The translations under genes and the position numbers were made by a program. Below, one piece after another: positions 4,409 to 64,000 of a stretch of DNA of 64,000 nucleotides (positions are counted from its first letter, which is position 1; each line of letters opens with the position of its first letter). The stretch is from Deltaproteobacteria bacterium (GTDB lineage Bacteria; UBA10199; DSSB01; JACPFA01). The notes under the pieces were generated by a model. The model was given only the letters and a program-made list of their open reading frames with translations, was not told where the DNA came from and did no database searches. Where the stretch lies: contig JACPFA010000026.1 of the NCBI GenBank assembly GCA_016183235.1, positions 33,284 through 97,283 of the forward strand, in the 5' to 3' direction.

Positions 4409-4665
4409 TAAAAAGTTTTAGTGAAGAGGGCTAAGGGGTTGAGCTAGAATCCGCACCCGTAAAGCCTGCTCGGCTCAAAAAATTATTTATTTTTAATTGA
4501 ATTAGAGTATTCCTTCGTCATCCTCTAATTTCGTCATCCTCTAATTCAAAAAAATAATATAATTTTTTGAACCTCCGGAGCCTGTCCTGAGGCTTTGCGA
4601 AGGAGCTTTACTCCTGCTACAGGTTCTCAACATACCCCCTTAGGCCACTTCAGGAAGACTTTTTA
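4409..4665. repeat. F-type long hairpin element, copy 1
   Basis: The termini AAAAAGTTTTAGTGAAG...CTTCAGGAAGACTTTTT are inverted repeats. The interior holds smaller palindromes and a tandem tcgtcatcctctaatt x2. The termini match the element at 62609-62825. Confidence 0.7.
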
Positions 4666-4690: not shown

Positions 4691-4931
4691 GTCTTTTCGA
4701 GGTAGGGAGAGGCCAAGGGAGAGCCTTTTACCAGGAGGGCGGCCTATGATAGTTTCTGTCATTGCGAACTTAAGCGGGTGAAGCAATCTCTTCTGCCTAA
4801 GCGATGGGATTGCCACGCTCGCTATCATGGGTCCCCGCCTTCGCGGGGATGACACCGCTCGCAATGACAGAGGCCCTCATAGGCCGACCGGGCGCGGGCT
4901 CTCCATTGGCCTCTCCCTACCTCGAAAAGAC
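4691..4931. repeat. three-level nested palindrome (outer stem, then A-type element, then GC hairpin)
   Basis: The outer arms gtcttttcgaggtagggagaggccaagggagagcc / ggctctccattggcctctccctacctcgaaaagac enclose ggcctatga/tcataggcc. These enclose the ctgtcattgcga...tcgcaatgacag element (4756-4870), which in turn encloses atcatgggtccccgccttcgcggggatgacac (4824-4855). Confidence 0.85.
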
Positions 4932-6962: not shown

Positions 6963-7077
6963 CTGTCATTGCGAACCCAGCAGGGTGAAGCAATCTCTTC
7001 TGTTTAAGCGGTGAGATTGCCACGCTCGCTATCATGGGTCCCCGCCTTCGCGGGGATGACACCGCTCGCAATGACAG
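6963..7077. repeat. A-type composite palindromic element with a GC hairpin at its apex
   Basis: Near-identical to 4756-4870 (ctgtcattgcgaaccc...gattgccacgctcgct-atcatgggtccccgccttcgcggggatgacac-cgctcgcaatgacag). It ends 2 nt from the xseA stop codon. Confidence 0.9.
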
Positions 7078-7079
7078 AG

Positions 7080-8346: not shown

Positions 8347-8490
8347 GTGTCATTGAGAAGGAGCGTCTGTCATTGCGAGGCCTGTGTGGGCGGCCTTCTG
8401 TCATTGCGAACCCAGCGGGGTGAAGCAATCTCTTCTGCCTAAGCGGTGGGATTGCCACGCTCGCCAACGGGGCTCGCTCGCAATGACAGA
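8347..8490. repeat. cluster of A-type palindromic elements (short-apex variant)
   Basis: Three gtcattg(c/a)ga units. The 8396-8490 copy has the apex aacgggg where other copies carry a 32-nt hairpin. It supplies the last ~15 codons and the stop of the 8439..9965 ORF. Confidence 0.85.
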
Positions 8491-13937: not shown

Positions 13938-13961
13938 TAATAAAAACAAGCAATCCGAAAT

Positions 13962-14045
13962 GGAAGATTCTTTACCATCATGGGTCCCCGCCGGAGTTTA
14001 CCCCTGCGTAGGCAGGGGCAGGGATGACATGGTTCAGAATGACAG
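13962..14045. repeat. GC-hairpin repeat with an inner insert
   Basis: ggaagattc...atcatgggtccccgccggagtttacccctgcgtaggcaggggcagggatgacatgg...aatgacag has a near-copy at 18670-18753. Confidence 0.85.
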
Positions 14046-14069
14046 ACCGATTAAGAAGATGAAATTTTC

Positions 14070-17966: not shown

Positions 17967-18119
17967 GGGGGGACCTCTAAAAAGGGCGTGAGATGCAAGG
18001 CGCCCGCAAAGGCGCGACCGGAGCGTATATGGAAATACGTGAGGATCGCGGCTTTGCGGGCAATCCTTCGCTTACGCTCTGGACAGGCTCTGCAGATGGG
18101 TCGTTTTTAGAGGTCCCCC
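17967..18119. repeat. D-type structured palindromic element, copy 1
   Basis: Terminal inverted repeats GGGGGACCTCTAAAAA / TTTTTAGAGGTCCCCC and an internal 15-bp stem (18002-18016 with 18047-18061). It is homologous to 56903-57028 and abuts the stop codon at 18120. Confidence 0.85.
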
Positions 18120-28858: not shown

Positions 28859-29125
28859 AATTTCATATCATTACAAAGCACATGTTTTCTGTCATTGCGA
28901 ACGATGTCATCCCCGCGAAGTATGCCCTCGACCCCGATCGGGGGGCGGGGACCCATGATACCGAGCGTGGCAATCCGACCAAAGGTCGTCCTGAGGCTTT
29001 AGCCGAAGGATCTCTTACAAACGAAGAGATCCCTCGCAAAACCTCGGGACAATGCTTCGCATTGGATTGCTTCACCCTGCTGGGTTCGCAATGACAGAGA
29101 ATAAAAGGCTCGCAATGACAAAAGA
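28859..29125. repeat. 267-bp mosaic of A-, GC-hairpin- and C-type repeat modules between two ATPase genes
   Basis: It contains ctgtcattgcgaac, gtcatccccgcg...cggggacccatgat, cgagcgtggcaatcc, the C module gtcctgaggctttagccgaaggatctcttacaaacgaagagatccctcgcaaaacctcgggac, and two tcgcaatgaca termini. Confidence 0.9.
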
Positions 29126-32338: not shown

Positions 32339-34003
32339 TTATGGCGCGGCCTTGACTGTCCATTCTAAGGGGTCAAGGCCACCGCGATAGAGCTGTACGT
32401 TGCTAAACCGTTTATCAAGGGCTACCAAACTCATGGTAGCATACAAAAATGTGTAAGGCTGTTCATCATAAATAATGCGATGGATGCGTTTAAGCAACAA
32501 GTCGCGCTCGGCCTGATCAAAGGTCACTCGCACTTGTTCGATGAGGCTGTCGGCCTCGGCATTTTGAAAACTGACAAAATTATGCCCTTCTTTAATTTGA
32601 GAAGAATGCCAAATTTGGTAAGGATCGGGGTCAAAACTGCCACTCCAGCCTAAAGACACTGCATCAAAATCACGTTGGTTGACTTTTTGTAAAAACACTG
32701 ACCATTCTATCCGACTTAAAGTTACATCGATCCCCACCCGTGCCATGTTATTTTTCATGATGCTCCCCAGCCGTTCATAAAAACGAGCCCCGGCGGGAAA
32801 AAGGAATGTAAAGCGAAAGGGCTTTCCATCTTTGTCAATAACGCCATCGCCGTCATGATCTTCCCAACCCGCCGCTTTCAACAATTGTTTGGCCGAAGCG
32901 GGGTTAAACTCGATGGGGGGCAAACTATGGTCATAACCATAAACTTGTGGCGAAAAGGGGCCAGTGGAAGCTTCGCCCAAATTAAATTCGAGTTTTTCAA
33001 CGATCTCTTTTTGATTAATTAAGTGCGACAAGGCCTTGCGCACGCTTGCATCTTTAAACCAAGGGCGCTTGGCATTCCACCCAATGTAACGATAGCCTAA
33101 ACTTGAATATTGAAAACGGTAAAACTTCTTTTGAAATTTTTCAGATTGAGTTTGTTTAACCCACTGAATGGGCCTTAAACCAGCCTGGTCTAAATCGCCT
33201 TTTTTGAGCATTTGCAAGGCGACCGTATCGTTCGATACAATTTTAAAATAAATCCGCTTAATCTCGGGGGTGTGTTGTTTGTCCCAATAATTGGGATTGG
33301 CCTCTAAAACAATGGCCGCCCCCGATTCCCACTTTTTGAAAACATAAGGACCTGACCCCACCGGATGGCGATTGATTGCCGCCGTGTTAAAATCGTAGCT
33401 GTCGTCTTTGACTAACTGCCTAACCCAAGAATGTTCGGAAAAACTTTTGAGTTGGTTGTCGGCCGAACCATATAAATGACGAGGTAAAATGGGCATGCCC
33501 CCAATAAATTCCAAGGCTCGGAAATAGGGCCGAGCATAGGTAAATTTAACCGTGTGGGCATCGAGCTTTTCAACCGACTTTATGTCTTGATAATAATTGC
33601 GTAAGTGCGCGGCATTTACCTTGGGGTCTCGAATGCGGTCATAACTAAACAAAATATCATCGGCCGTTAAAGCTTGGCCATCGTGCCAGGTCACATCTTT
33701 GCGCAAATGAAAGATGTATTCTAAATGATCATCGCTCACCTCCCAACGCCAGGCAATTTTGGGAACAAACTCTAGGGTTTTATTGTCGCGAATAATCAAA
33801 TAATCAAAAATGAAATTATCGACCCTACTTTCATAAACATCTTGCCCCAAGATGGGGTTGAGCACATCGGGCTCGCCGCCCATATGATCGATCAAGGTGT
33901 AAGGATCTTTGGGTGGCTGCCAACTTGAGCAACTAAGCATCAATGTCATCCCCGCGAAGGCGGGGATCCATGATAGTAAAGCAATCTTCAACCTTAGTTT
34001 CAC
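32339..34003 (-). CDS. ABC transporter substrate-binding lipoprotein, family 5 (OppA/DppA type)
   Basis: 554 aa with family-5 SBP features. The signal peptide MKLRLKIALLSWIPAFAGMTLMLSC has its hydrophobic core (33939-33990) encoded by a GC-hairpin repeat unit. Confidence 0.85.
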   Translation of the reverse strand: MKLRLKIALLSWIPAFAGMTLMLSCSSWQPPKDPYTLIDHMGGEPDVLNPILGQDVYESRVDNFIFDYLIIRDNKTLEFVPKIAWRWEVSDDHLEYIFHLRKDVTWHDGQALTADDILFSYDRIRDPKVNAAHLRNYYQDIKSVEKLDAHTVKFTYARPYFRALEFIGGMPILPRHLYGSADNQLKSFSEHSWVRQLVKDDSYDFNTAAINRHPVGSGPYVFKKWESGAAIVLEANPNYWDKQHTPEIKRIYFKIVSNDTVALQMLKKGDLDQAGLRPIQWVKQTQSEKFQKKFYRFQYSSLGYRYIGWNAKRPWFKDASVRKALSHLINQKEIVEKLEFNLGEASTGPFSPQVYGYDHSLPPIEFNPASAKQLLKAAGWEDHDGDGVIDKDGKPFRFTFLFPAGARFYERLGSIMKNNMARVGIDVTLSRIEWSVFLQKVNQRDFDAVSLGWSGSFDPDPYQIWHSSQIKEGHNFVSFQNAEADSLIEQVRVTFDQAERDLLLKRIHRIIYDEQPYTFLYATMSLVALDKRFSNVQLYRGGLDPLEWTVKAAP

Positions 34004-54041: not shown

Positions 54042-54473
54042 TTACTTACTAGTGCAGTAATCCCTCAGTCTTAGGGGCTTAGCTTTCAGAAACCCTTTGT
54101 GCGAGAGCGACGAGTCATGAGCGCTTAAAAAACATATGGTTTGTAGAAGCCTGTCCTGAGCCTTAGCGAAGGATCTCCTACGAACAAGGAGATCCCTCGT
54201 AAAACCTCGGGACAAGCTTCTAAACAAACCAAGAGTGCAAGCATCGGCTAAAATTTTAATTTGATCTTCTGCCACCTCTAAAACCCCACCCTCAACATCA
54301 AACTGCGTCATAGTTGAACCTTGACGCAAGGTCAAAACCCCTACACCCAAGCCTGACACCATGGTGGTATGGCCCGGCAATATCTCAAATTCGCCCAGTA
54401 ACCCCGGCGCTACGATGCTATCGTAATCACCTGATAAGATTTTTGCCCCGGGGGTTACAAATTCTATGTGCAT
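54042..54473 (-). CDS. atpC: ATP synthase F1 epsilon subunit whose C-terminal domain is replaced by repeat-derived sequence
   Basis: The start is ATG 54473 (MHIEFVTPGAKIL...). Residues 1-78 form a normal epsilon beta-sandwich (...VLEVAEDQIKILADA). Residues ~80-143 are read through a C-type repeat (54146-54220) and unrelated sequence. Confidence 0.8.
   Translation of the reverse strand: MHIEFVTPGAKILSGDYDSIVAPGLLGEFEILPGHTTMVSGLGVGVLTLRQGSTMTQFDVEGGVLEVAEDQIKILADACTLGLFRSLSRGFTRDLLVRRRSFAKAQDRLLQTICFLSAHDSSLSHKGFLKAKPLRLRDYCTSK
54146..54220. repeat. C-type palindromic repeat module inside the atpC ORF
   Basis: gaagcctgtcctgagccttagcgaaggatctcctacgaacaaggagatccctcgtaaaacctcgggacaagcttc. A close copy lies at ~28985-29058, and related pieces at 4570-4620 and 62725-62785. 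Confidence 0.85.
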
Positions 54474-54534: not shown

Positions 54535-56869
<2,335 letters not shown>

Positions 56870-57029: not shown

Positions 57030-58538
57030 TTACGCTACAAAGTGTTGTTTAAATTGCTCTAGCGCCTGATTGAGTCTTTGTTTAATTTCTGCCGTTAATT
57101 CTTTTTTGCTGCGCAGGTCATTCAATAAACCGTTGTGTTTGCTTTCCATATAAAGGGGCAATTCTTCCAAATATTTTTGAATCTTTGCCGTAGGATAAGC
57201 ATCTAAATAGCCATTGGTTGCGGCATAGATTTGAATGACTTGCAGCTCCACGGGCATGGGTTCGTATTGCCCTTGCTTTAACACCTCCACTAGGCGTTCC
57301 CCCCGGGCTAGCTGGGCCTGAGTGGCCGCATCCAAATCGCTCCCAAATTGGGCAAAGGCCGCCAACTCACGAAATTGGGCTAATTCTAACCGCAAAGTTC
57401 CCGCTACTTGTTTCATCATTTTCACTTGGGCATTCCCTCCCACCCGTGAAACTGAGAGCCCCACGTTAACCGCAGGCCGCACCCCTGAATAAAATAAGTC
57501 GGTTTCTAAATAAATTTGGCCATCCGTAATAGAAATTACGTTGGTAGGGATATAAGCCGAAACGTCCCCCGCTTGGGTTTCAATGATGGGCAACGCGGTT
57601 AAAGACCCGCCACCTCGCGCGCTACTTAGTTTTGCGGCCCGTTCCAAAAGACGGGAATGCAGATAAAAAACATCCCCAGGATAAGCCTCGCGCCCGGGCG
57701 GCCTACGGAGTAACAACGAAAGCTGGCGATAGGCCACCGCTTGTTTAGACAAATCATCATAAATGATAAGGGCGTGCTTGCCATTGTCTCGAAAATATTC
57801 GCCAATGGTGCAACCGGAATAAGGGGAAATAAATTGCAAAGGCGCCGGGGTAGAAGCCGCCGCCACCACAATGACCGTGTAATCCATGGCCCCATGTTTT
57901 TTAAGTTTTTCCACCACTTGGGCCACGGTAGATTGCTTCTGCCCAATGGCAACGTAAATACAATAACAGTCTTTGCCTTTTTGATTAATGATCGTATCCA
58001 AGGCCACCGCGGTTTTGCCGGTTTGACGGTCGCCAATGATCAACTCCCGTTGCCCACGCCCAATAGGGATCATGGCATCAATGGCTTTGAGCCCGGTTTG
58101 CAAAGGGATTTTAACCGGCTCTCGATCGACAATCCCGGGGGCTTTAATTTCAATGCGTCGAGAAAGTTTGGATTCAATCGGCCCTAAACCATCGAGCGGA
58201 TTCCCCAGTGCGTCAATGACGCGGCCTAATACCGCTTCGCCCACCGGGACTTCAGCAATTCTCCCCGTCCGTTTGACTTCATCCCCTTCTCTAATCTTAA
58301 CATCCTCGCCCATGATGGCCACGCCTACATTGTCTTCTTCTAAGTTGAGGGCCAAGCCATAAACCTCGCCCGGAAATTCTAACAACTCGCCCGCCATAAC
58401 CTTAGTCAACCCATACACCCGCGCAATCCCATCCCCCACCGAAAGAACCGTGCCTATTTCGGTCATTTCGACCAACTGCCCAAACCCAAGTATTTGTTTT
58501 TGAATAATCTCTGATATTTCATCTGGCCTGATTTGCAT
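57030..58538 (-). CDS. atpA: ATP synthase F1 alpha subunit
   Basis: 502 aa with Walker [10 protein letters not shown] and conserved alpha blocks ([21 protein letters not shown]). Confidence 0.97.
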
Positions 58539-58551
58539 GCGTTATTCTCCT

Positions 58552-59091
58552 CTAAAGCGCTACTTTTTCGACATTCGAACGTAGTTTGTTGAGCTGGGCT
58601 TTAAGGCTACCATCAAAAACTTGATCGCCAATTTTGATCATAATGCCCCCTAACAACGAAGCATCTTGCTCTTGTTTTAACAAAACTTTTTTCTTTAAAA
58701 TCTTTTCTAAGCGCAGGCCTAAATCACCCACCTGCGTTGCCATGGGCAAATGGACCATGGCCCGCACCCGCCCCAAATGCTCATCGGCCATGTTGCGATA
58801 TTCCCGCACCACCGAACTAAACACATAACTGCGTTTTCTTTCTAAAAGAATCCGCAATAAATTCCCCACCGCTCGGCTTAATCCCACCTGTTGAATGATC
58901 TTCTCTAAAACTTCTTTTTTCTCTCGAATCGAAATGGCCGGATTGCCTAACATGAGAGTTAGCGGGGCCTTGGGTAAGAAAGTCCCGTTCAAACTTTCTA
59001 ATTCGGCTAAAATTTCTTCTACTTGCGATGCGGTGATTGCAATCCTAAGCAGGGCCTTACCATAACGTTTGCCTAAAGAACCTTCGATCAT
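58552..59091 (-). CDS. atpH: ATP synthase F1 delta (OSCP) subunit
   Basis: 179 aa with an OSCP-like helical N-domain and GGIMIKIGDQVFDGSLKAQL near the C-terminus. It overlaps atpF by 4 nt. Confidence 0.9.
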   Translation of the reverse strand: MIEGSLGKRYGKALLRIAITASQVEEILAELESLNGTFLPKAPLTLMLGNPAISIREKKEVLEKIIQQVGLSRAVGNLLRILLERKRSYVFSSVVREYRNMADEHLGRVRAMVHLPMATQVGDLGLRLEKILKKKVLLKQEQDASLLGGIMIKIGDQVFDGSLKAQLNKLRSNVEKVAL

Positions 59092-60071
59092 GCCAATTTC
59101 TCCATCTTACCCAGGTATTCTTGCACTATACGGTTTTGATCTTCGGCTTGAATATTTTGGCGAATGTGCGTGCTTGCTAATTCAATGGCGATCTGGATAC
59201 CCTCTTCTTTGAGAACCTCTTTGGCCTTACGAACTTCTTGTTGAATCAGCTTGTGGCTCTCGGCTAACATGCGCTCTGATTGCATCTGCGCATCATTTAA
59301 GATTTTAGCCTTTTCCAATTCTCCCTCTTGGCGGATCGTTTCCACCAAACTTTTGATCTCGTCTTCAATACGCTTCAATTTTATTTCAACCGCTTGATAT
59401 TTTCCCAAGGCTTCGTCTCGTTTTTGCGCGGCGTCTTGTAGTTTATCTTTAAGTTGGGTTGCCCTTTCTCGAAAAAAATCTTTGACCGGCTTTTTAAGGA
59501 GAAAAAATAGTACGACTAAAAGTAAAGCAAAGTTGCCCAGGGCATACCATAGGGTGGTGGGGATGCCTTCGGTCGTATGGCCTTCAGCAGCCATAACGCT
59601 TGCGCTCGCCAACCAAAACAATAGGGTCACGGGCCAGAAATGAAAGGTCTTTTCTAAAAATTTTTGGGCAATGCTTTTTGATAAATCTTTAGCCAAACGG
59701 TGCAGCTCTACCCTGGCATGCTCGGTTTCGGTTTGAATAACTTTGCGCTGGTCCTGTAGTTGTTCATCGATTTTGCCACGCACTTGTTGAAATTTCTCCA
59801 TGGCTAAACGATTGGCCTCTCGCTTTAATTCTTCTTTAACCAAAACGCCTTTTAATTTAGCTGCATTGATTTTTTGAACATAGTCGGCGAACAATTTTTC
59901 AGTTTCACCATGCATGGCTTCAGCGGCCGCAACCCGTTCCACGGTGAGATTTTTACGCATGGCCAAGAGGGCTAAAACAGGCTTAAAGATTAAAAAATGA
60001 ACGATCAAGACCACCAAAAGAAAGATCCCAGACATTAAGATAAAACTGAGGTCCGGAACAAGATTTTCCAT
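59088..60071 (-). CDS. atpF: ATP synthase Fo subunit b'-b in-frame fusion
   Basis: One 327-aa ORF. Residues 1-141 are a complete b'-like subunit (TM plus coiled coil ending SIAQKFLEK). Residues ~148-327 are a complete b-like subunit (WPVTLLFWLASASVMA/AEGH..., a second TM, then a coiled coil). No stop codon lies between them. Confidence 0.8.
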   Translation of the reverse strand: MENLVPDLSFILMSGIFLLVVLIVHFLIFKPVLALLAMRKNLTVERVAAAEAMHGETEKLFADYVQKINAAKLKGVLVKEELKREANRLAMEKFQQVRGKIDEQLQDQRKVIQTETEHARVELHRLAKDLSKSIAQKFLEKTFHFWPVTLLFWLASASVMAAEGHTTEGIPTTLWYALGNFALLLVVLFFLLKKPVKDFFRERATQLKDKLQDAAQKRDEALGKYQAVEIKLKRIEDEIKSLVETIRQEGELEKAKILNDAQMQSERMLAESHKLIQQEVRKAKEVLKEEGIQIAIELASTHIRQNIQAEDQNRIVQEYLGKMEKLA

Positions 60072-60181: not shown

Positions 60182-60631
60182 CTAAAATTCGCGGCGGGTA
60201 TAATCGGTAGGTGCAGGCGAGGTCAATTCAAAGACTTCGGCATTATTTTCGGGTGTAGGAGCGGCATAATGTTCAGGGGCTGTCTTCCCCATACTACAAT
60301 GACCTTCAAACAAGGCCCCCTCACCTACCACTAAGGCGGGCGACAAAATATCTCCATACACTTTGGCGTGTTCTAACATCTCAATTTTTTGCTTAGCCCT
60401 AATGCTCCCCAAAACCGTACCGGTAATAATTGCGGTGCCTACATCAATCGTAGCGCGTACCTCAGCGCCCTCTCCTATCACCAACACACCGTCTGAAAAA
60501 ATCTCCCCTTGAAATTTGCCATTGATTTGCACGGTGCCTTCAAAGGTTAATTTGCCTTCAAATTCTGCGTCACGCTCTAGCACGGTGGTAGATTCGGATT
60601 CTAACATTTTTAAGTTTCGTTCCCTAGCCAT
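60182..60631 (-). CDS. bactofilin
   Basis: 149 aa with the DUF583 beta-helix pattern (FEGKLTFEGTVQINGKFQGEIFSDGVLVIGEGAEVRATIDVGTAIITGTVLGSI...). Confidence 0.9.
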   Translation of the reverse strand: MARERNLKMLESESTTVLERDAEFEGKLTFEGTVQINGKFQGEIFSDGVLVIGEGAEVRATIDVGTAIITGTVLGSIRAKQKIEMLEHAKVYGDILSPALVVGEGALFEGHCSMGKTAPEHYAAPTPENNAEVFELTSPAPTDYTRREF

Positions 60632-60652
60632 GATCGGCCTCCTTATTATTCA

Positions 60653-60710
60653 TTTGTCATTGCGATCCACGTCATCCCGGGCCTGACCCGGGATCCACGA
60701 TGACGCAATC
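60653..60710. repeat. A-terminus plus GC-hairpin repeat unit
   Basis: tttgtcattgcgatccacgtcatcccgggcctgacccgggatccacgatgacgcaatc. Confidence 0.85.
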
Positions 60711-60722
60711 TTTATTCTTTTT

Positions 60723-61601
60723 TCATCCAATAACTGCGTTATAAATTCGATCTAAATCCTCATGCGTATAGTAATCAATCAACACCTTGCCTTTTTTCCC
60801 AGAAGGTTTGATTTTTACTTTAGTACCCAAAATCTTCATCATTTCATTTTCAATAAATTTTATTTGCGGATCTTCTATCTTGGCCACTGCAACTTTACGC
60901 AACTGCAGGCCGGTGCGCAGGTCTCGGATTAAGTTTTCTACTTCTCTAACGGATAATTGGTCTTTTATGATCTGATTTTTCACTTTAATCTTAAGCGCGT
61001 CATCGTCTAAGGCCAAAAGCGCTCGGGCATGCCCCATGCTTAAACGATTTTCAATAATGTCGCCTCGGATTTCTTCAGGCAATCCCAACAATCGTATGGC
61101 ATTGGCAATCGTCGATCGATCTTTGCCCACACGCTCGGCCAGTTGATCTTGCGTGTAATCATAACGTTCTAATAAATTTTTATAAGCCAAGGCTTCTTCA
61201 ATGGGATTTAAATCCTGCCGCTGAATATTCTCGATTAAGGCAATCTCCATCACCTCATCGTCTTCACAATCTAAAATGACAACCGGGACTTTATCGAGAT
61301 TGGCTAGCTTACTCGCCCTTAGCCTGCGCTCGCCCGCAACCAATTCGTATTTTCCACCTCCGGGCATTGCACGCACCAACAAGGGTTCAATGACACCCTT
61401 TTCACGGATGGAGAGAGCCAATTCTTCTAAACCTTTTTTCTCAAAAAGTTTGCGCGGCTGATCTTTGCTGGGAATAATATCATCAATCGGACATTCCAAA
61501 TATTTTGACACACCCTCTTCTGATATTTCTGGCGCACTTTTCGACAAAAGCATGCCGGGCAATAATGAAGCCAACCCTTTTCCTAATGCACGTTGATTCA
61601 C
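60723..61601 (-). CDS. parB: chromosome partitioning protein ParB
   Basis: 292 aa with the ParB box LVAGERRLRASKLA, an HTH region and a C-terminal dimerisation region. Confidence 0.93.
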   Translation of the reverse strand: MNQRALGKGLASLLPGMLLSKSAPEISEEGVSKYLECPIDDIIPSKDQPRKLFEKKGLEELALSIREKGVIEPLLVRAMPGGGKYELVAGERRLRASKLANLDKVPVVILDCEDDEVMEIALIENIQRQDLNPIEEALAYKNLLERYDYTQDQLAERVGKDRSTIANAIRLLGLPEEIRGDIIENRLSMGHARALLALDDDALKIKVKNQIIKDQLSVREVENLIRDLRTGLQLRKVAVAKIEDPQIKFIENEMMKILGTKVKIKPSGKKGKVLIDYYTHEDLDRIYNAVIG

Positions 61602-61653
61602 GCGAAAACCCTCCTTATAATTTAAATGATCATGCGCCTTTTATAAGGCTTGC

Positions 61654-62466
61654 TCATAATAAAACTTCGCCCTGAAACTGCCCCTCTTGAACTATATTTT
61701 GTACGTTTTTTATACCAACCAATTCTCGAGTCAAATCAAGATAACTTTGTGCCCCCTTAGAACGTACATCATAATTAATGATCGACTTACCATGTGATGG
61801 GCTCTCCCCCAACTTCACATTTCTTGGAATCACCGTTTGAAATACTTTTTCTCCAAAAAAATTGCGGATCTCTTCGGCCACTTGTCTGGCAAGATTATTT
61901 CTTGCGTCAAACATGGTTAAGATGATTCCACCAATTTGTAATTTTGGATTTAAATGGGTCTTTATTAATTCGATGGTGCGCGTCAATTCACTCAAACCTT
62001 CCAAGGCAAAATATTCACATTGCACAGGGATCAGCACTGCATCACAGGCCGTAAGCGCATTGACCGTCAACAAATTTAAGGAAGGAGGACAATCAATGAG
62101 AATAAAATCATAATCTTCTTCTAAATTTTTAAGAGCACTTTTTAATTTTGATTCTCGGGCAAACACCGACACCAACTCTAGCTCTGCCCCCACCAGCTGG
62201 GTGTTGGCGGGCAGCAGGTCTAAATATTCGAGATCGGTTGACACCACAGCCGCTTCCACCGCCACTTCATTAATCAACACTTCATAAATACTTTGCGTGA
62301 TTTCTTGTTTCACAAAACCCAAGCCGCTAGTGGAATTGCCTTGGGGATCTAAATCCACCAACAGAGTTTTGCGTTCGGCTGCCGCCAGGCAAGACGCCAC
62401 ATTGATGGCAGTGGTAGTTTTACCAACTCCGCCTTTTTGATTAGTGATGGCGAAAATTTTTGCCAT
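61654..62466 (-). CDS. parA: chromosome partitioning ATPase ParA/Soj
   Basis: 270 aa with the deviant Walker A NQKGGVGKTTTAINV and Walker B FILIDCPPS. Confidence 0.95.
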   Translation of the reverse strand: MAKIFAITNQKGGVGKTTTAINVASCLAAAERKTLLVDLDPQGNSTSGLGFVKQEITQSIYEVLINEVAVEAAVVSTDLEYLDLLPANTQLVGAELELVSVFARESKLKSALKNLEEDYDFILIDCPPSLNLLTVNALTACDAVLIPVQCEYFALEGLSELTRTIELIKTHLNPKLQIGGIILTMFDARNNLARQVAEEIRNFFGEKVFQTVIPRNVKLGESPSHGKSIINYDVRSKGAQSYLDLTRELVGIKNVQNIVQEGQFQGEVLL

Positions 62467-62581
62467 TTAATTTAAAATAAACCTATTTAATTGGATTTAC
62501 GTTGGATTGAGATACACACCTTTTATCGTAATCCAAAATTTTTAGCAACAAAAATATACATGTAATATAATGTATGTCATC

Positions 62582-62597
62582 GGTTGCACGTGAAACG
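62582..62597. promoter_or_regulatory. degenerate parS-like site
   Basis: GGTTGCACGTGAAACG matches the parS consensus TGTTTCACGTGAAACA at 13 of 16 positions. Confidence 0.35.
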
Positions 62598-62608
62598 CAA
62601 CTCGCTCA

Positions 62609-62825
62609 CCTAAAAAGTTTTACTGAAGTCGGCAGAGGCTTCCAGGGGTCCGTGTCGCCTGGGGGTTACGGCCCCCAGGCGCACTCAAAGTCTCAGCTTT
62701 CACGGCTATATAGCCATAGAGGTGAAAACTGGAGTTTACCCTGAGCACTTCGCCAAGACTCAGTGTAAACTCCGCGAAGGGACAAACCCCTTCCAGCCTC
62801 AGCCAACTTCAGTAAAACTTTTTAT
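62609..62825. repeat. F-type long hairpin element, copy 2
   Basis: Termini AAAAAGTTTTACTGAAGT / ACTTCAGTAAAACTTTTT. The interior holds several perfect small hairpins, e.g. GCCTGGGGG-ttacgg-CCCCCAGGC. It is followed by the 20-bp unit TTTATAT(T/C)TCTGCAAATATT x2 (62821-62860). Confidence 0.8.
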
Positions 62826-62870
62826 ATTTCTGCAAATATTTTTATATCTCTGCAAATATTTGTATGGATA

Positions 62871-63089
62871 TAAAAAGCGAGGGATGCGACTTTGCGGTTG
62901 AGTTAGCTTTTTCGACCCATCGCGGAATCGCCGGGGCCCCCAATGCGGGCTAGCCGGCATGGAAAGCCGAGGCCCGCCGCAGGCGGGAACGCGGAAGGCT
63001 TCCGTGCCGGCTAGCCCCATTAGGGTCGGCGATGGAGCGCCGGGTCGAAAAAGCTAACTCAACCGCAAAGTCGCATCCCTCGCTTTTTA
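62871..63089. repeat. E-type palindromic element, copy 2 (same core as 22907-23014, different outer stem)
   Basis: Outer arms taaaaagcgagggatgcgactttgcggttgagttagctttttcgaccc and their complement. The core 62917-63040 is about 94% identical to the reverse complement of the E1 core. Confidence 0.85.
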
Positions 63090-63154
63090 GTGCAACAATT
63101 TGAATATTTATTTGCGGTGATGACTTTATTCTCCAGGAGACTTTAACCCCCACT

Positions 63155-63170
63155 TGTTTCATGTGAAACA
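63155..63170. promoter_or_regulatory. parS centromere-like site
   Basis: TGTTTCATGTGAAACA matches the parS consensus TGTTTCACGTGAAACA at 15 of 16 positions. It lies 8 nt beyond the mnmG stop and ~690 bp upstream of parA. Confidence 0.6.
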
Positions 63171-63177
63171 AAAGCCC

Positions 63178-64000
63178 TCAAGCGGCTGCTTTGCCATTGA
63201 GTTGTTTTTTTAAAAAGATGGCCAGGATGCTTAAGGCTGCGGGGGTGATGCCTGATATTTTGCTCGCTTCATCAAGATTAGAGGGGGCGAACTTTTTTAA
63301 TTTCTCGACCACTTCCTGAGAAAGCCCTGGAATTTTATCAAAGGAAAATTTTTCTGGAAAGGCGTGCTCGGCCAGTTGTTGGTATTGCCGAGCTAAAATT
63401 TTGCCTCGTTCAATATAGCCGGAGTATTTAGTCTCCACCTCTGCTGTATAGAGATTCTCTGGATCGTAGGTCTTCATAAACCCAAGCTTTTCTGAAAAAA
63501 CCTCGACAAGATTTACTAGGTTGCATTCTGGTCGGCAAAGAATTTCAGACAAGGGCAGGGGTTTTTTAAGCGGAGCTGTTTTTAAGGTGTCTTCCATTAT
63601 CTGATTAATTTCTGGTGTGGGGTAAAAAATGATTTCTTTTAAAGCTTCTTGGATGGTGGTGACTTGAGTCCTCCGGTGAATAAAGTCCCCATATTCTTTG
63701 TGATCGATCAAGCCTAAAGTCATGCCTAGTTCTCTCAATCGAAGATCGGCGTTATCTTCCCTCAATAACAATCGATGTTCAGCTCGAGAAGTAAACATGC
63801 GATAAGGTTCACCACAGGTGCCTTTTGTCACCAGGTCATCAATCAACACACCAATGTAGGCCTGATCTCGAGTCAAAATGAAGGGTTTTTCTCCCCGGAT
63901 TTTCAACACAGCGTTAATTCCAGCCATCAGCCCTTGAGCCGCTGCCTCTTCGTAACCTGAAGTTCCATTGATTTGGCCGGCTAAAAATAAATTTTCGATG
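63178..64000 (-). CDS. mnmG: tRNA uridine 5-carboxymethylaminomethyl modification enzyme MnmG (GidA), C-terminal part
   Basis: The reading frame continues upstream of the track's Met at 63927 to the window edge (...LAGQINGTSGYEEAAAQGLMAGINA...YRMFTSRAEHRLLLREDNADLRL). The 5' end lies beyond 64000. Confidence 0.93.
   Translation of the reverse strand, partial: IENLFLAGQINGTSGYEEAAAQGLMAGINAVLKIRGEKPFILTRDQAYIGVLIDDLVTKGTCGEPYRMFTSRAEHRLLLREDNADLRLRELGMTLGLIDHKEYGDFIHRRTQVTTIQEALKEIIFYPTPEINQIMEDTLKTAPLKKPLPLSEILCRPECNLVNLVEVFSEKLGFMKTYDPENLYTAEVETKYSGYIERGKILARQYQQLAEHAFPEKFSFDKIPGLSQEVVEKLKKFAPSNLDEASKISGITPAALSILAIFLKKQLNGKAAA

Follow-up and report, generated by a model that had tools for sequence, protein, structure and literature searches.

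A b'-b fusion gene of the ATP synthase peripheral stalk with a putative internal signal peptide in an uncultured deltaproteobacterium

We found that in a 64,000-nucleotide stretch of genomic DNA from a Deltaproteobacteria bacterium (assembly GCA_016183235.1, contig JACPFA010000026.1, positions 33,284 to 97,283), referred to below as the window, the two peripheral-stalk subunits of the F-type ATP synthase, b' and b, are encoded by one uninterrupted open reading frame (ORF). That the b'-b fusion is real we regard as practically certain. As to its meaning, we propose, with a probability of roughly two in three, that the gene is a natural polyprotein of both stalk subunits, which would be cut after VMA161, at the end of what appears to be the signal peptide of b enclosed within the chain, to free mature b. 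Heterodimeric b/b' stalks are known; what seems to be new is a recurrent b'-b polyprotein gene with a putative internal signal peptide.

Of all parts of rotary ATP synthases, the peripheral stalk is conserved least, and little is understood of how its subunits are inserted and come to pair. If our proposal is correct, a b'-b precursor made from one gene and containing an internal signal peptide would represent a new assembly route for a core bioenergetic machine, in which b' and b are deliverable to the membrane as one chain. Such a gene would also be a ready-made construct for studying the assembly of heterodimeric stalks.

The fused gene and its two ATP-synt_B units

According to the ORF list and our reading of the sequence, the gene starts with ATG and encodes 327 amino acids (aa). 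The initial annotation had placed an in-frame b'-b fusion of this length at the same coordinates, which stand; the strand has to be corrected to minus. Its residue numbering also holds, with K141 ending b', WPVTLLFWLASASVMA covering residues 146-161, AEGHTTEG residues 162-169, and the GTG at 59630 encoding V148. The gene and its parts, including two in-frame codons discussed below together with their Shine-Dalgarno (SD) duplex energies, are the following:

59088..60071, minus strand: fused b'-b ORF (327 aa), first gene of an atp(b'b)-H-A-G-D-C operon; the same ORF is present in contigs L001-L004 of a sister lineage
59649..60071, minus strand: b' half, residues 1-141, with a transmembrane (TM) segment at about residues 8-29 (59985-60050), then one long helix
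59589..59648, minus strand: signal-peptide-like linker, residues 142-161 (TFHFWPVTLLFWLASASVMA), with a predicted signal peptidase I (SPase I) site between V159-M160-A161 and A162
59088..59588, minus strand: predicted mature b half, residues 162-327 plus stop, consisting of a tail, a TM segment and a long helix
59553-59588, minus strand: predicted periplasmic tail AEGHTTEGIPTT of the b half, upstream of the b TM segment
59496-59552, minus strand: b TM segment, residues ~174-192, a hydrophobic segment
59592..59594, minus strand: in-frame ATG (M160), SD duplex of -3.8 kcal/mol
59628..59630, minus strand: in-frame GTG (V148), SD duplex of -1.5 kcal/mol, no SD sequence

With its two units, the protein belongs to the ATP-synt_B family twice, in the setting of a heterodimeric b/b' stalk. 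The Pfam model PF00430 (ATP-synt_B) recognizes the ORF with 90 bits (cut-off 28) and matches two stretches of it, and the NCBIfam models for b and b' match residues 1-141 and about 150-325 as separate regions. At the level of equivalog models, TIGR01144 (subunit b) is passed by a narrow margin (66.1 bits against a cut-off of 65.5, residues 179-322), and NF005607 (subunit b') stays far below its threshold (55.9 bits against 131, residues 11-140). The first half is named b' because of the gene order and its similarity to P0063, an unfused upstream subunit of 143 aa with which it shares 38% identity. The b half, in turn, is 42-44% identical to the unfused b proteins P0002, P0006, P0007, and P0009.

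Each half corresponds to a nearly complete stalk subunit. Residues 168-324 align to positions 6-163 of 9jc1_B, i.e., to nearly the whole of a solved b subunit, while residues 16-142 align to positions 13-139 of Escherichia coli b, again close to full subunit length, and residues 4-139 to positions 25-160 of mycobacterial b; the solved mycobacterial structures 7jg5 and 7njk also match the b' half. Two hydrophobic segments can be read in the sequence (residues 8-29 and 174-192), so that each unit consists of one N-terminal TM segment and a long continuous helix, the architecture of PF00430. An AlphaFold2 (AF2) model built from a 33-sequence alignment, with a mean predicted local distance difference test (pLDDT) score of 78.7, presents b' as one unbroken helix (residues 8-137) with no hairpin and b as a helix at residues 182-326. 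The region in between (residues 137-178) has a pLDDT below 50 and no secondary structure.

We determined that the fused frame is kept outside this genome. Four contigs of four independent assemblies (ENA, JGI), L001-L004, representing a sister lineage, carry a protein of the same length (P0001, 327 aa) with 95% aa identity; they are identical over the gene and share the same neighbours. The window gene and that of the sister lineage are 92.6% identical at the nucleotide (nt) level (7.4% of positions differ), with the frame kept. The nt differences are distributed over codon positions 1/2/3 as 15/6/52, and 52 codons changed synonymously versus 17 non-synonymously. Within the junction (codons 142-172) six synonymous and five non-synonymous changes were counted and no indel. 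The substitution pattern across the junction therefore indicates translation of the linker in this frame, with selection acting on it. Judged by these substitutions, the gene is under purifying selection, linker included. The initial annotation had raised the possibility of a missed stop or a frameshift, to which the same open frame in all four sister-lineage assemblies provides an answer.

Nor is the fusion a peculiarity of this genome; the architecture is recurrent. When 1.84 billion cluster representatives were searched exhaustively with HMMER and fusions were counted among the best 150 matches, at least 31 further representatives of 50%-identity clusters, 308-350 aa in length, align end to end with the query, and additional database searches turned up fused proteins beyond these 31. 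The fused genes of L069, L071, and L074 directly precede atpH; in L069 and L071 the whole atpH-A-G-D-C order follows, and the operon has no second b gene next to the fused one. Where database names are given for the fused clades, these are 'Deltaproteobacteria bacterium' metagenome-assembled genomes (MAGs). Public annotations of the fused proteins read 'hypothetical protein', 'ATP synthase F0 subunit B' or 'F-type H+-transporting ATPase subunit b'. Annotation pipelines may thus score such genomes as devoid of b', and family models miss the fused architecture.

The linker and the predicted fate of the chain

The closest homologues of the b half are unfused b proteins of 181-194 aa (39-44% identity) from MAGs labelled UBA10199, UBA1 or 'Deltaproteobacteria bacterium'. 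Each begins with a signal peptide of the typical Sec type, after which comes a tail rich in Glu, Gly and His, e.g., MKLAPLGRKIFLSATMLSFWISTAWA/ETEGH and MNRRLTLAIAMGISLLALPLWA/AEGGH (here and below, a slash marks the predicted cleavage site). In the alignment, the h- and c-regions of these peptides are matched by the window segment TFHFWPVTLLFWLASASVMA/AEGH, and around the site itself FWISTAWA/ETEGH, AGFAWA/SEG, and PLWA/AEGGH of the unfused proteins stand opposite ASASVMA/AEGH of the window. On the strength of this alignment we conclude that the linker is a former signal peptide of b that has become internal. It retains the elements of a Sec/SPase I signal: K141 as the basic residue, the h-region FHFWPVTLLFWLA, and SASVMA with V at position -3 and A at position -1.

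The pattern is shared by all fused proteins that we examined, as a canonical SPase I site is kept in 33 out of 33. The residue that precedes the hydrophobic stretch (141 in the window) is R or K in 26 of them, and the positions equivalent to residues 142-155 are hydrophobic. Upstream of the site, position -6 is occupied mostly by Pro (P18/S9/T3) and position -3 by Ala (A24/V4/L2/G2/S1). Position -1 is Ala in 30-31 and Gly in 2-3 sequences, depending on the alignment, and position +1 is most often Ser (S18/A6/G4/E3). The distance from the basic residue to position -1 has a median of 20 residues. The signal peptides of 92 unfused b proteins have the same motif profile, with Ala at -1 in 84. Preservation of a canonical site in all fused lineages long after the fusion is what one would expect if the site were still used. 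Cleavage after SVMA/AEG, which the initial annotation had offered as a way out of a difficult topology, is thus favoured both by the alignment of the linker with the 92 unfused b proteins and by the motif in 33/33 fusions, and processing at the signal peptidase site seems probable.

We propose that the chain would insert with three membrane passes, the b' TM segment running from N-out to C-in, the linker from in to out, and the b TM segment from out to in. Such a three-pass topology places the AxA site in the periplasm, where SPase I acts. The enzyme would cut on the periplasmic side after V159-M160-A161 (A157/S158 is an alternative predicted site) and free a mature b that begins with AEGHTTEG, after which b' and b may pair as the usual parallel coiled coil reaching delta atop F1. 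The leftover hydrophobic tail of b' would have to be removed, e.g., by a signal-peptide peptidase or an RseP-type protease, or else slip from the membrane; either route is a guess. As a likely consequence, b' and b would necessarily be made in a 1:1 ratio and inserted together. The three passes of a single chain had been called topologically awkward in the initial annotation. Three passes do follow from the sequence and they form a self-consistent topology; the difficulty is rather a geometric one, as the C-terminus of b' should reach the top of F1.

Several points weigh against this proposal. The n-region of the window linker is weak, consisting of a single Lys (K141) preceded by Glu, and the segment does not stand at the N-terminus of the precursor, as it begins at residue 142 of 327. 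After cleavage b' would keep a 20-residue hydrophobic C-terminal tail near the membrane, and in solved structures b-type subunits have their C-termini at the top of F1; the fusions show no second cleavage motif that is conserved. In principle, the small residues might be conserved for helix packing and not for recognition by a peptidase. Finally, when the PDB was searched for folds similar to the AF2 model, nothing was returned at E <= 0.001, only generic coiled coils.

As for the competing explanations, it is barely credible that we are dealing with an artefact or with decay, i.e., with an error that hides a stop codon or a frameshift, or with a recently broken gene pair heading for loss. Homopolymer runs are indeed present at the junction (CAAAAATTTTTAG), where the +1 frame has a TAG at 59654-59656. 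Yet, five independent assemblies of two lineages that are 7.4% apart in nt sequence all keep the frame, purifying selection extends over the whole ORF with its linker, dozens of distant fusions exist, and tblastn detects no further gene for b or b' in the window. Moreover, b would have no start codon after a +1 shift to the TAG. Sequencing error or a missed stop is ruled out by the independent assemblies together with the substitution pattern. A programmed +1 frameshift to this TAG within CAAAAATTTTTAG was rejected as well, as no stimulatory element is present, b would be startless, and the sequence is absent from other fusions. It is also improbable, though less so, that b is made separately from an in-frame start, with the fusion product being minor or irrelevant. 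The initial annotation had regarded the GTG at 59630 as the sole internal start, which does not hold, since the ATG at 59594 (M160) and TTG codons at L151 and L154 of the junction are also in frame; it was right in that V148 has no obvious SD, and the other three codons have no persuasive one either. A start at M160 would yield an ordinary-looking b of 168 aa without a signal peptide, and its SD energy (-3.8 kcal/mol) comes near that of the weakest genuine starts, atpG (-4.0) and parA (-3.6), among eight gene starts checked (-3.6 to -11.6 kcal/mol, 6/8 at -5.9 or stronger). However, with no stop codon between the halves every ribosome that starts at b' makes the fusion, and b' alone is impossible. 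The strong SD found inside b' of unfused relatives (AGGAAGGTG, GAAAGGTGG) is absent in the window, no junction Met is conserved (17 of the 33 fusions have none), and the fused gene of L069 contains no ATG, GTG or TTG in codons 125-185. The bias toward synonymous change and the kept peptidase motif further indicate that the linker is translated and constrained as protein. Taken as a candidate mechanism, internal initiation gained no support from the SD scan and the start-codon survey.

An uncleaved chain, in which all 327 aa stay together with three TM segments and b' folds back or otherwise adopts a non-canonical position beside the long b helix, is an unlikely outcome, albeit one to be taken seriously. 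The three-pass topology is self-consistent, mitochondrial b shows that a stalk subunit may have more than one TM helix, and cleavage at the predicted site is itself read from sequence. Against an intact chain, the b' half has the length of unfused b' (141 vs. 143-148 aa) and aligns along whole solved b subunits, and the AF2 helix spanning residues 8-137 gives no sign of a hairpin. The short h-region, the strictly kept -3/-1 motif and the Pro at -6 are as in unfused signal peptides and would not be explained by a mere TM segment. Processing of the polyprotein, on the other hand, agrees with the model, since with b' as an unbroken helix whose only tie to b is membrane-bound, a parallel b'/b stalk would require the chain to be cut.

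Beyond the fused proteins, we observed that b proteins of a broad 'deltaproteobacterial' group (P0002-P0004, L009-L058) carry a signal peptide followed by a short Glu/Gly/His-rich periplasmic tail. Examples of mature tails are AEGHTTEG, SEGGGHGGG, and AEGGHEEGPG; no discussion of this tail or its function was found in the searched literature. The data draw attention to a little-discussed b signal peptide and His/Gly/Glu-rich periplasmic tail in a large bacterial group.

Origin of the fusion

The arrangement of b' and b genes in unfused relatives suggests how the fusion may have arisen. In these loci the b' stop and b start codons overlap, as TGATG in L009-L012 and as ATGA in L005. In L072, an unfused locus with the same parB-bactofilin-atp synteny as the window, the sequence ...AAC TAG ATG AAC... 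places the b' stop and the b start side by side and in frame. From the conserved 'KxL' of b' to the cleavage site there are 23 residues in L072 and 22 in the window. Starting from a TAG ATG of the L072 type, one stop-codon substitution therefore suffices to give a b'-b fusion of the observed geometry. Comparison of these sequences makes it likely that the b' stop codon was lost in an ancestor with an adjacent stop and b start. The junction of P0014 (...FLGR-EPSHQPSLK-MIIYLL...) looks like one in which a former stop is now read through and the original start Met has been kept.

A neighbour-joining (NJ) tree built from the b domain distributes the fusions over a large clade, with C-termini ...LRLN, a further two clades of smaller size, and several singletons, while the window protein and P0001 nest within a clade of unfused b. 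This distribution points to several independent fusion origins, the number of which is uncertain. The NJ tree is rough, with long branches and no support values, which counts against the reading of several origins. A genome-collection scan returned unfused b loci only, because the peptide patterns used in the search came from the b half. Among its 185,579 species representatives none was more than 43% identical to the window b half, with patterns that fit the window sequence; among them, the organism seems to lack a close relative.

Whether the whole scenario applies, i.e., that in several uncultured lineages the stator derives from a b'-b polyprotein cut by SPase I, a route that evolved repeatedly by stop-codon loss, enforces 1:1 synthesis and paired insertion, and requires an extra step to free the b' C-terminus from the membrane, we consider evenly balanced.

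Genomic context and comparison with known systems

The fused gene opens an F1Fo operon and lies directly upstream of atpH, whose ATG overlaps the TGA stop of the fusion (ATGA). The genes that follow are:

58552..59091, minus strand: atpH (delta/OSCP), 179 aa, Pfam OSCP E = 1.7e-36
57030..58538, minus strand: atpA (alpha), ORF; its orthologue in L001 has ATP-synt_ab domains
56006..56869, minus strand: atpG (gamma), ORF, comparison with the orthologous locus
54535..55959, minus strand: atpD (beta), ORF, comparison with the orthologous locus
54042..54473, minus strand: atpC (epsilon), of which the N-terminal domain alone is recognizable; 3' end lengthened by a repeat insertion

Upstream of the fused gene we found genes for bactofilin, parB, parA, and the 3' part of an mnmG-like gene. 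The atp operon is thus located directly downstream of an mnmG-parA-parB-bactofilin region (60182-63927, minus strand), a synteny kept in L001-L003 and L072. Such mnmG-parA-parB-bactofilin regions are typically origin-proximal. A tblastn search of the window with the E. coli sequences revealed no gene for the a or c subunit (atpB/atpE), the only weak match falling in an aldo-keto-reductase-like ORF; both must be encoded elsewhere. With neither a/c genes nor a second b-type gene in the window, the layout resembles the split, origin-proximal atpX-F-H-A-G-D-C operon of Pelobacter/Geobacter (PMC3543383). In Pelobacter this operon lies apart from atpB/E and near origin genes (PMC3543383), which corresponds to the parA-parB-bactofilin-atp order of the window.

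Like the window protein, the heterodimeric b/b' stalks of cyanobacteria and chloroplasts, alpha-proteobacteria, Aquifex, and Geobacter/Pelobacter (atpX-atpF) combine two different ATP-synt_B proteins, each with one N-terminal TM segment and a long helix. In contrast to these systems, the window subunits share one ORF with no stop or start in between, and the putative b signal peptide is now internal. Closer relatives of the b half, with the 39-44% identity given above, are the unfused signal-peptide-bearing b proteins of UBA10199-type MAGs, Syntrophobacterales, Desulfobaccales, and others. These share with the window the order of signal peptide, AxA site, Glu/Gly/His-rich tail, TM segment and coiled coil, and L072 is syntenic, yet their b' and b genes are separate, with stop and start codons that overlap (TGATG or ATGA) or abut (TAG ATG).

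Another natural fusion of bacterial peripheral-stalk components is the mycobacterial b-delta protein (atpFH, with a separate b'). Its parts follow one another end to end without a change of membrane side, and neither re-crossing nor cleavage is needed, whereas in the window delta is a separate gene and Pfam gives no OSCP match within the fused ORF. As a mechanistic analogy alone, the nearest case known to us is the FbcH protein of Bradyrhizobium japonicum, reportedly a cytochrome b-c1 polyprotein processed at an internal signal peptide. Here, too, two subunits of one respiratory complex are said to be encoded by one ORF and split by the signal peptide of the downstream subunit, which is the layout read in the window gene. 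There is no homology between the two, and while an extra C-terminal TM segment is geometrically unproblematic for cytochrome b, the C-terminus of b' must reach the top of F1. Full-text literature searches retrieved no description of a natural b'-b fusion or of a b signal peptide, an absence that is not a proof, and the words 'fusion' and 'fused' do not occur in a review of the peripheral stalk (PMC6131620).

The epsilon genes at the end of the operon differ among the loci. In the sister lineage (L001, 8296-8544) epsilon has 82 aa, ends with ...ADSCTLK*, where the asterisk denotes the stop, and appears to consist of the N-terminal beta-sandwich domain only; the epsilon subunits of L069 and L071 have 139 aa and include the C-terminal helical domain. 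In the window the atpC stop is displaced and the ORF continues for ~62 aa into unrelated sequence. A palindromic repeat of ~170 bp (MITE/REP-like; miniature inverted-repeat transposable element/repetitive extragenic palindrome), located at 54058-54230 and absent from L001, is inserted at the 3' end of atpC, and partial copies of it are found near 4579-4607, 18063-18089, and 28988-29058 of the window.

In turn, L001 carries a 349-bp insertion (2425-2773, with an N run) between bactofilin and the atp operon that is absent from the window, where the corresponding junction lies at about 60182-60188. Parts of this insertion match short repeats of the window at 4824-4881, 6964-7079, 8399-8425, 13958-14046, 28888-29096, and 33943-33989. 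Further upstream, the gap between parA and the mnmG-like gene (62470-63175, ~700 bp) contains only short overlapping ORFs on both strands.

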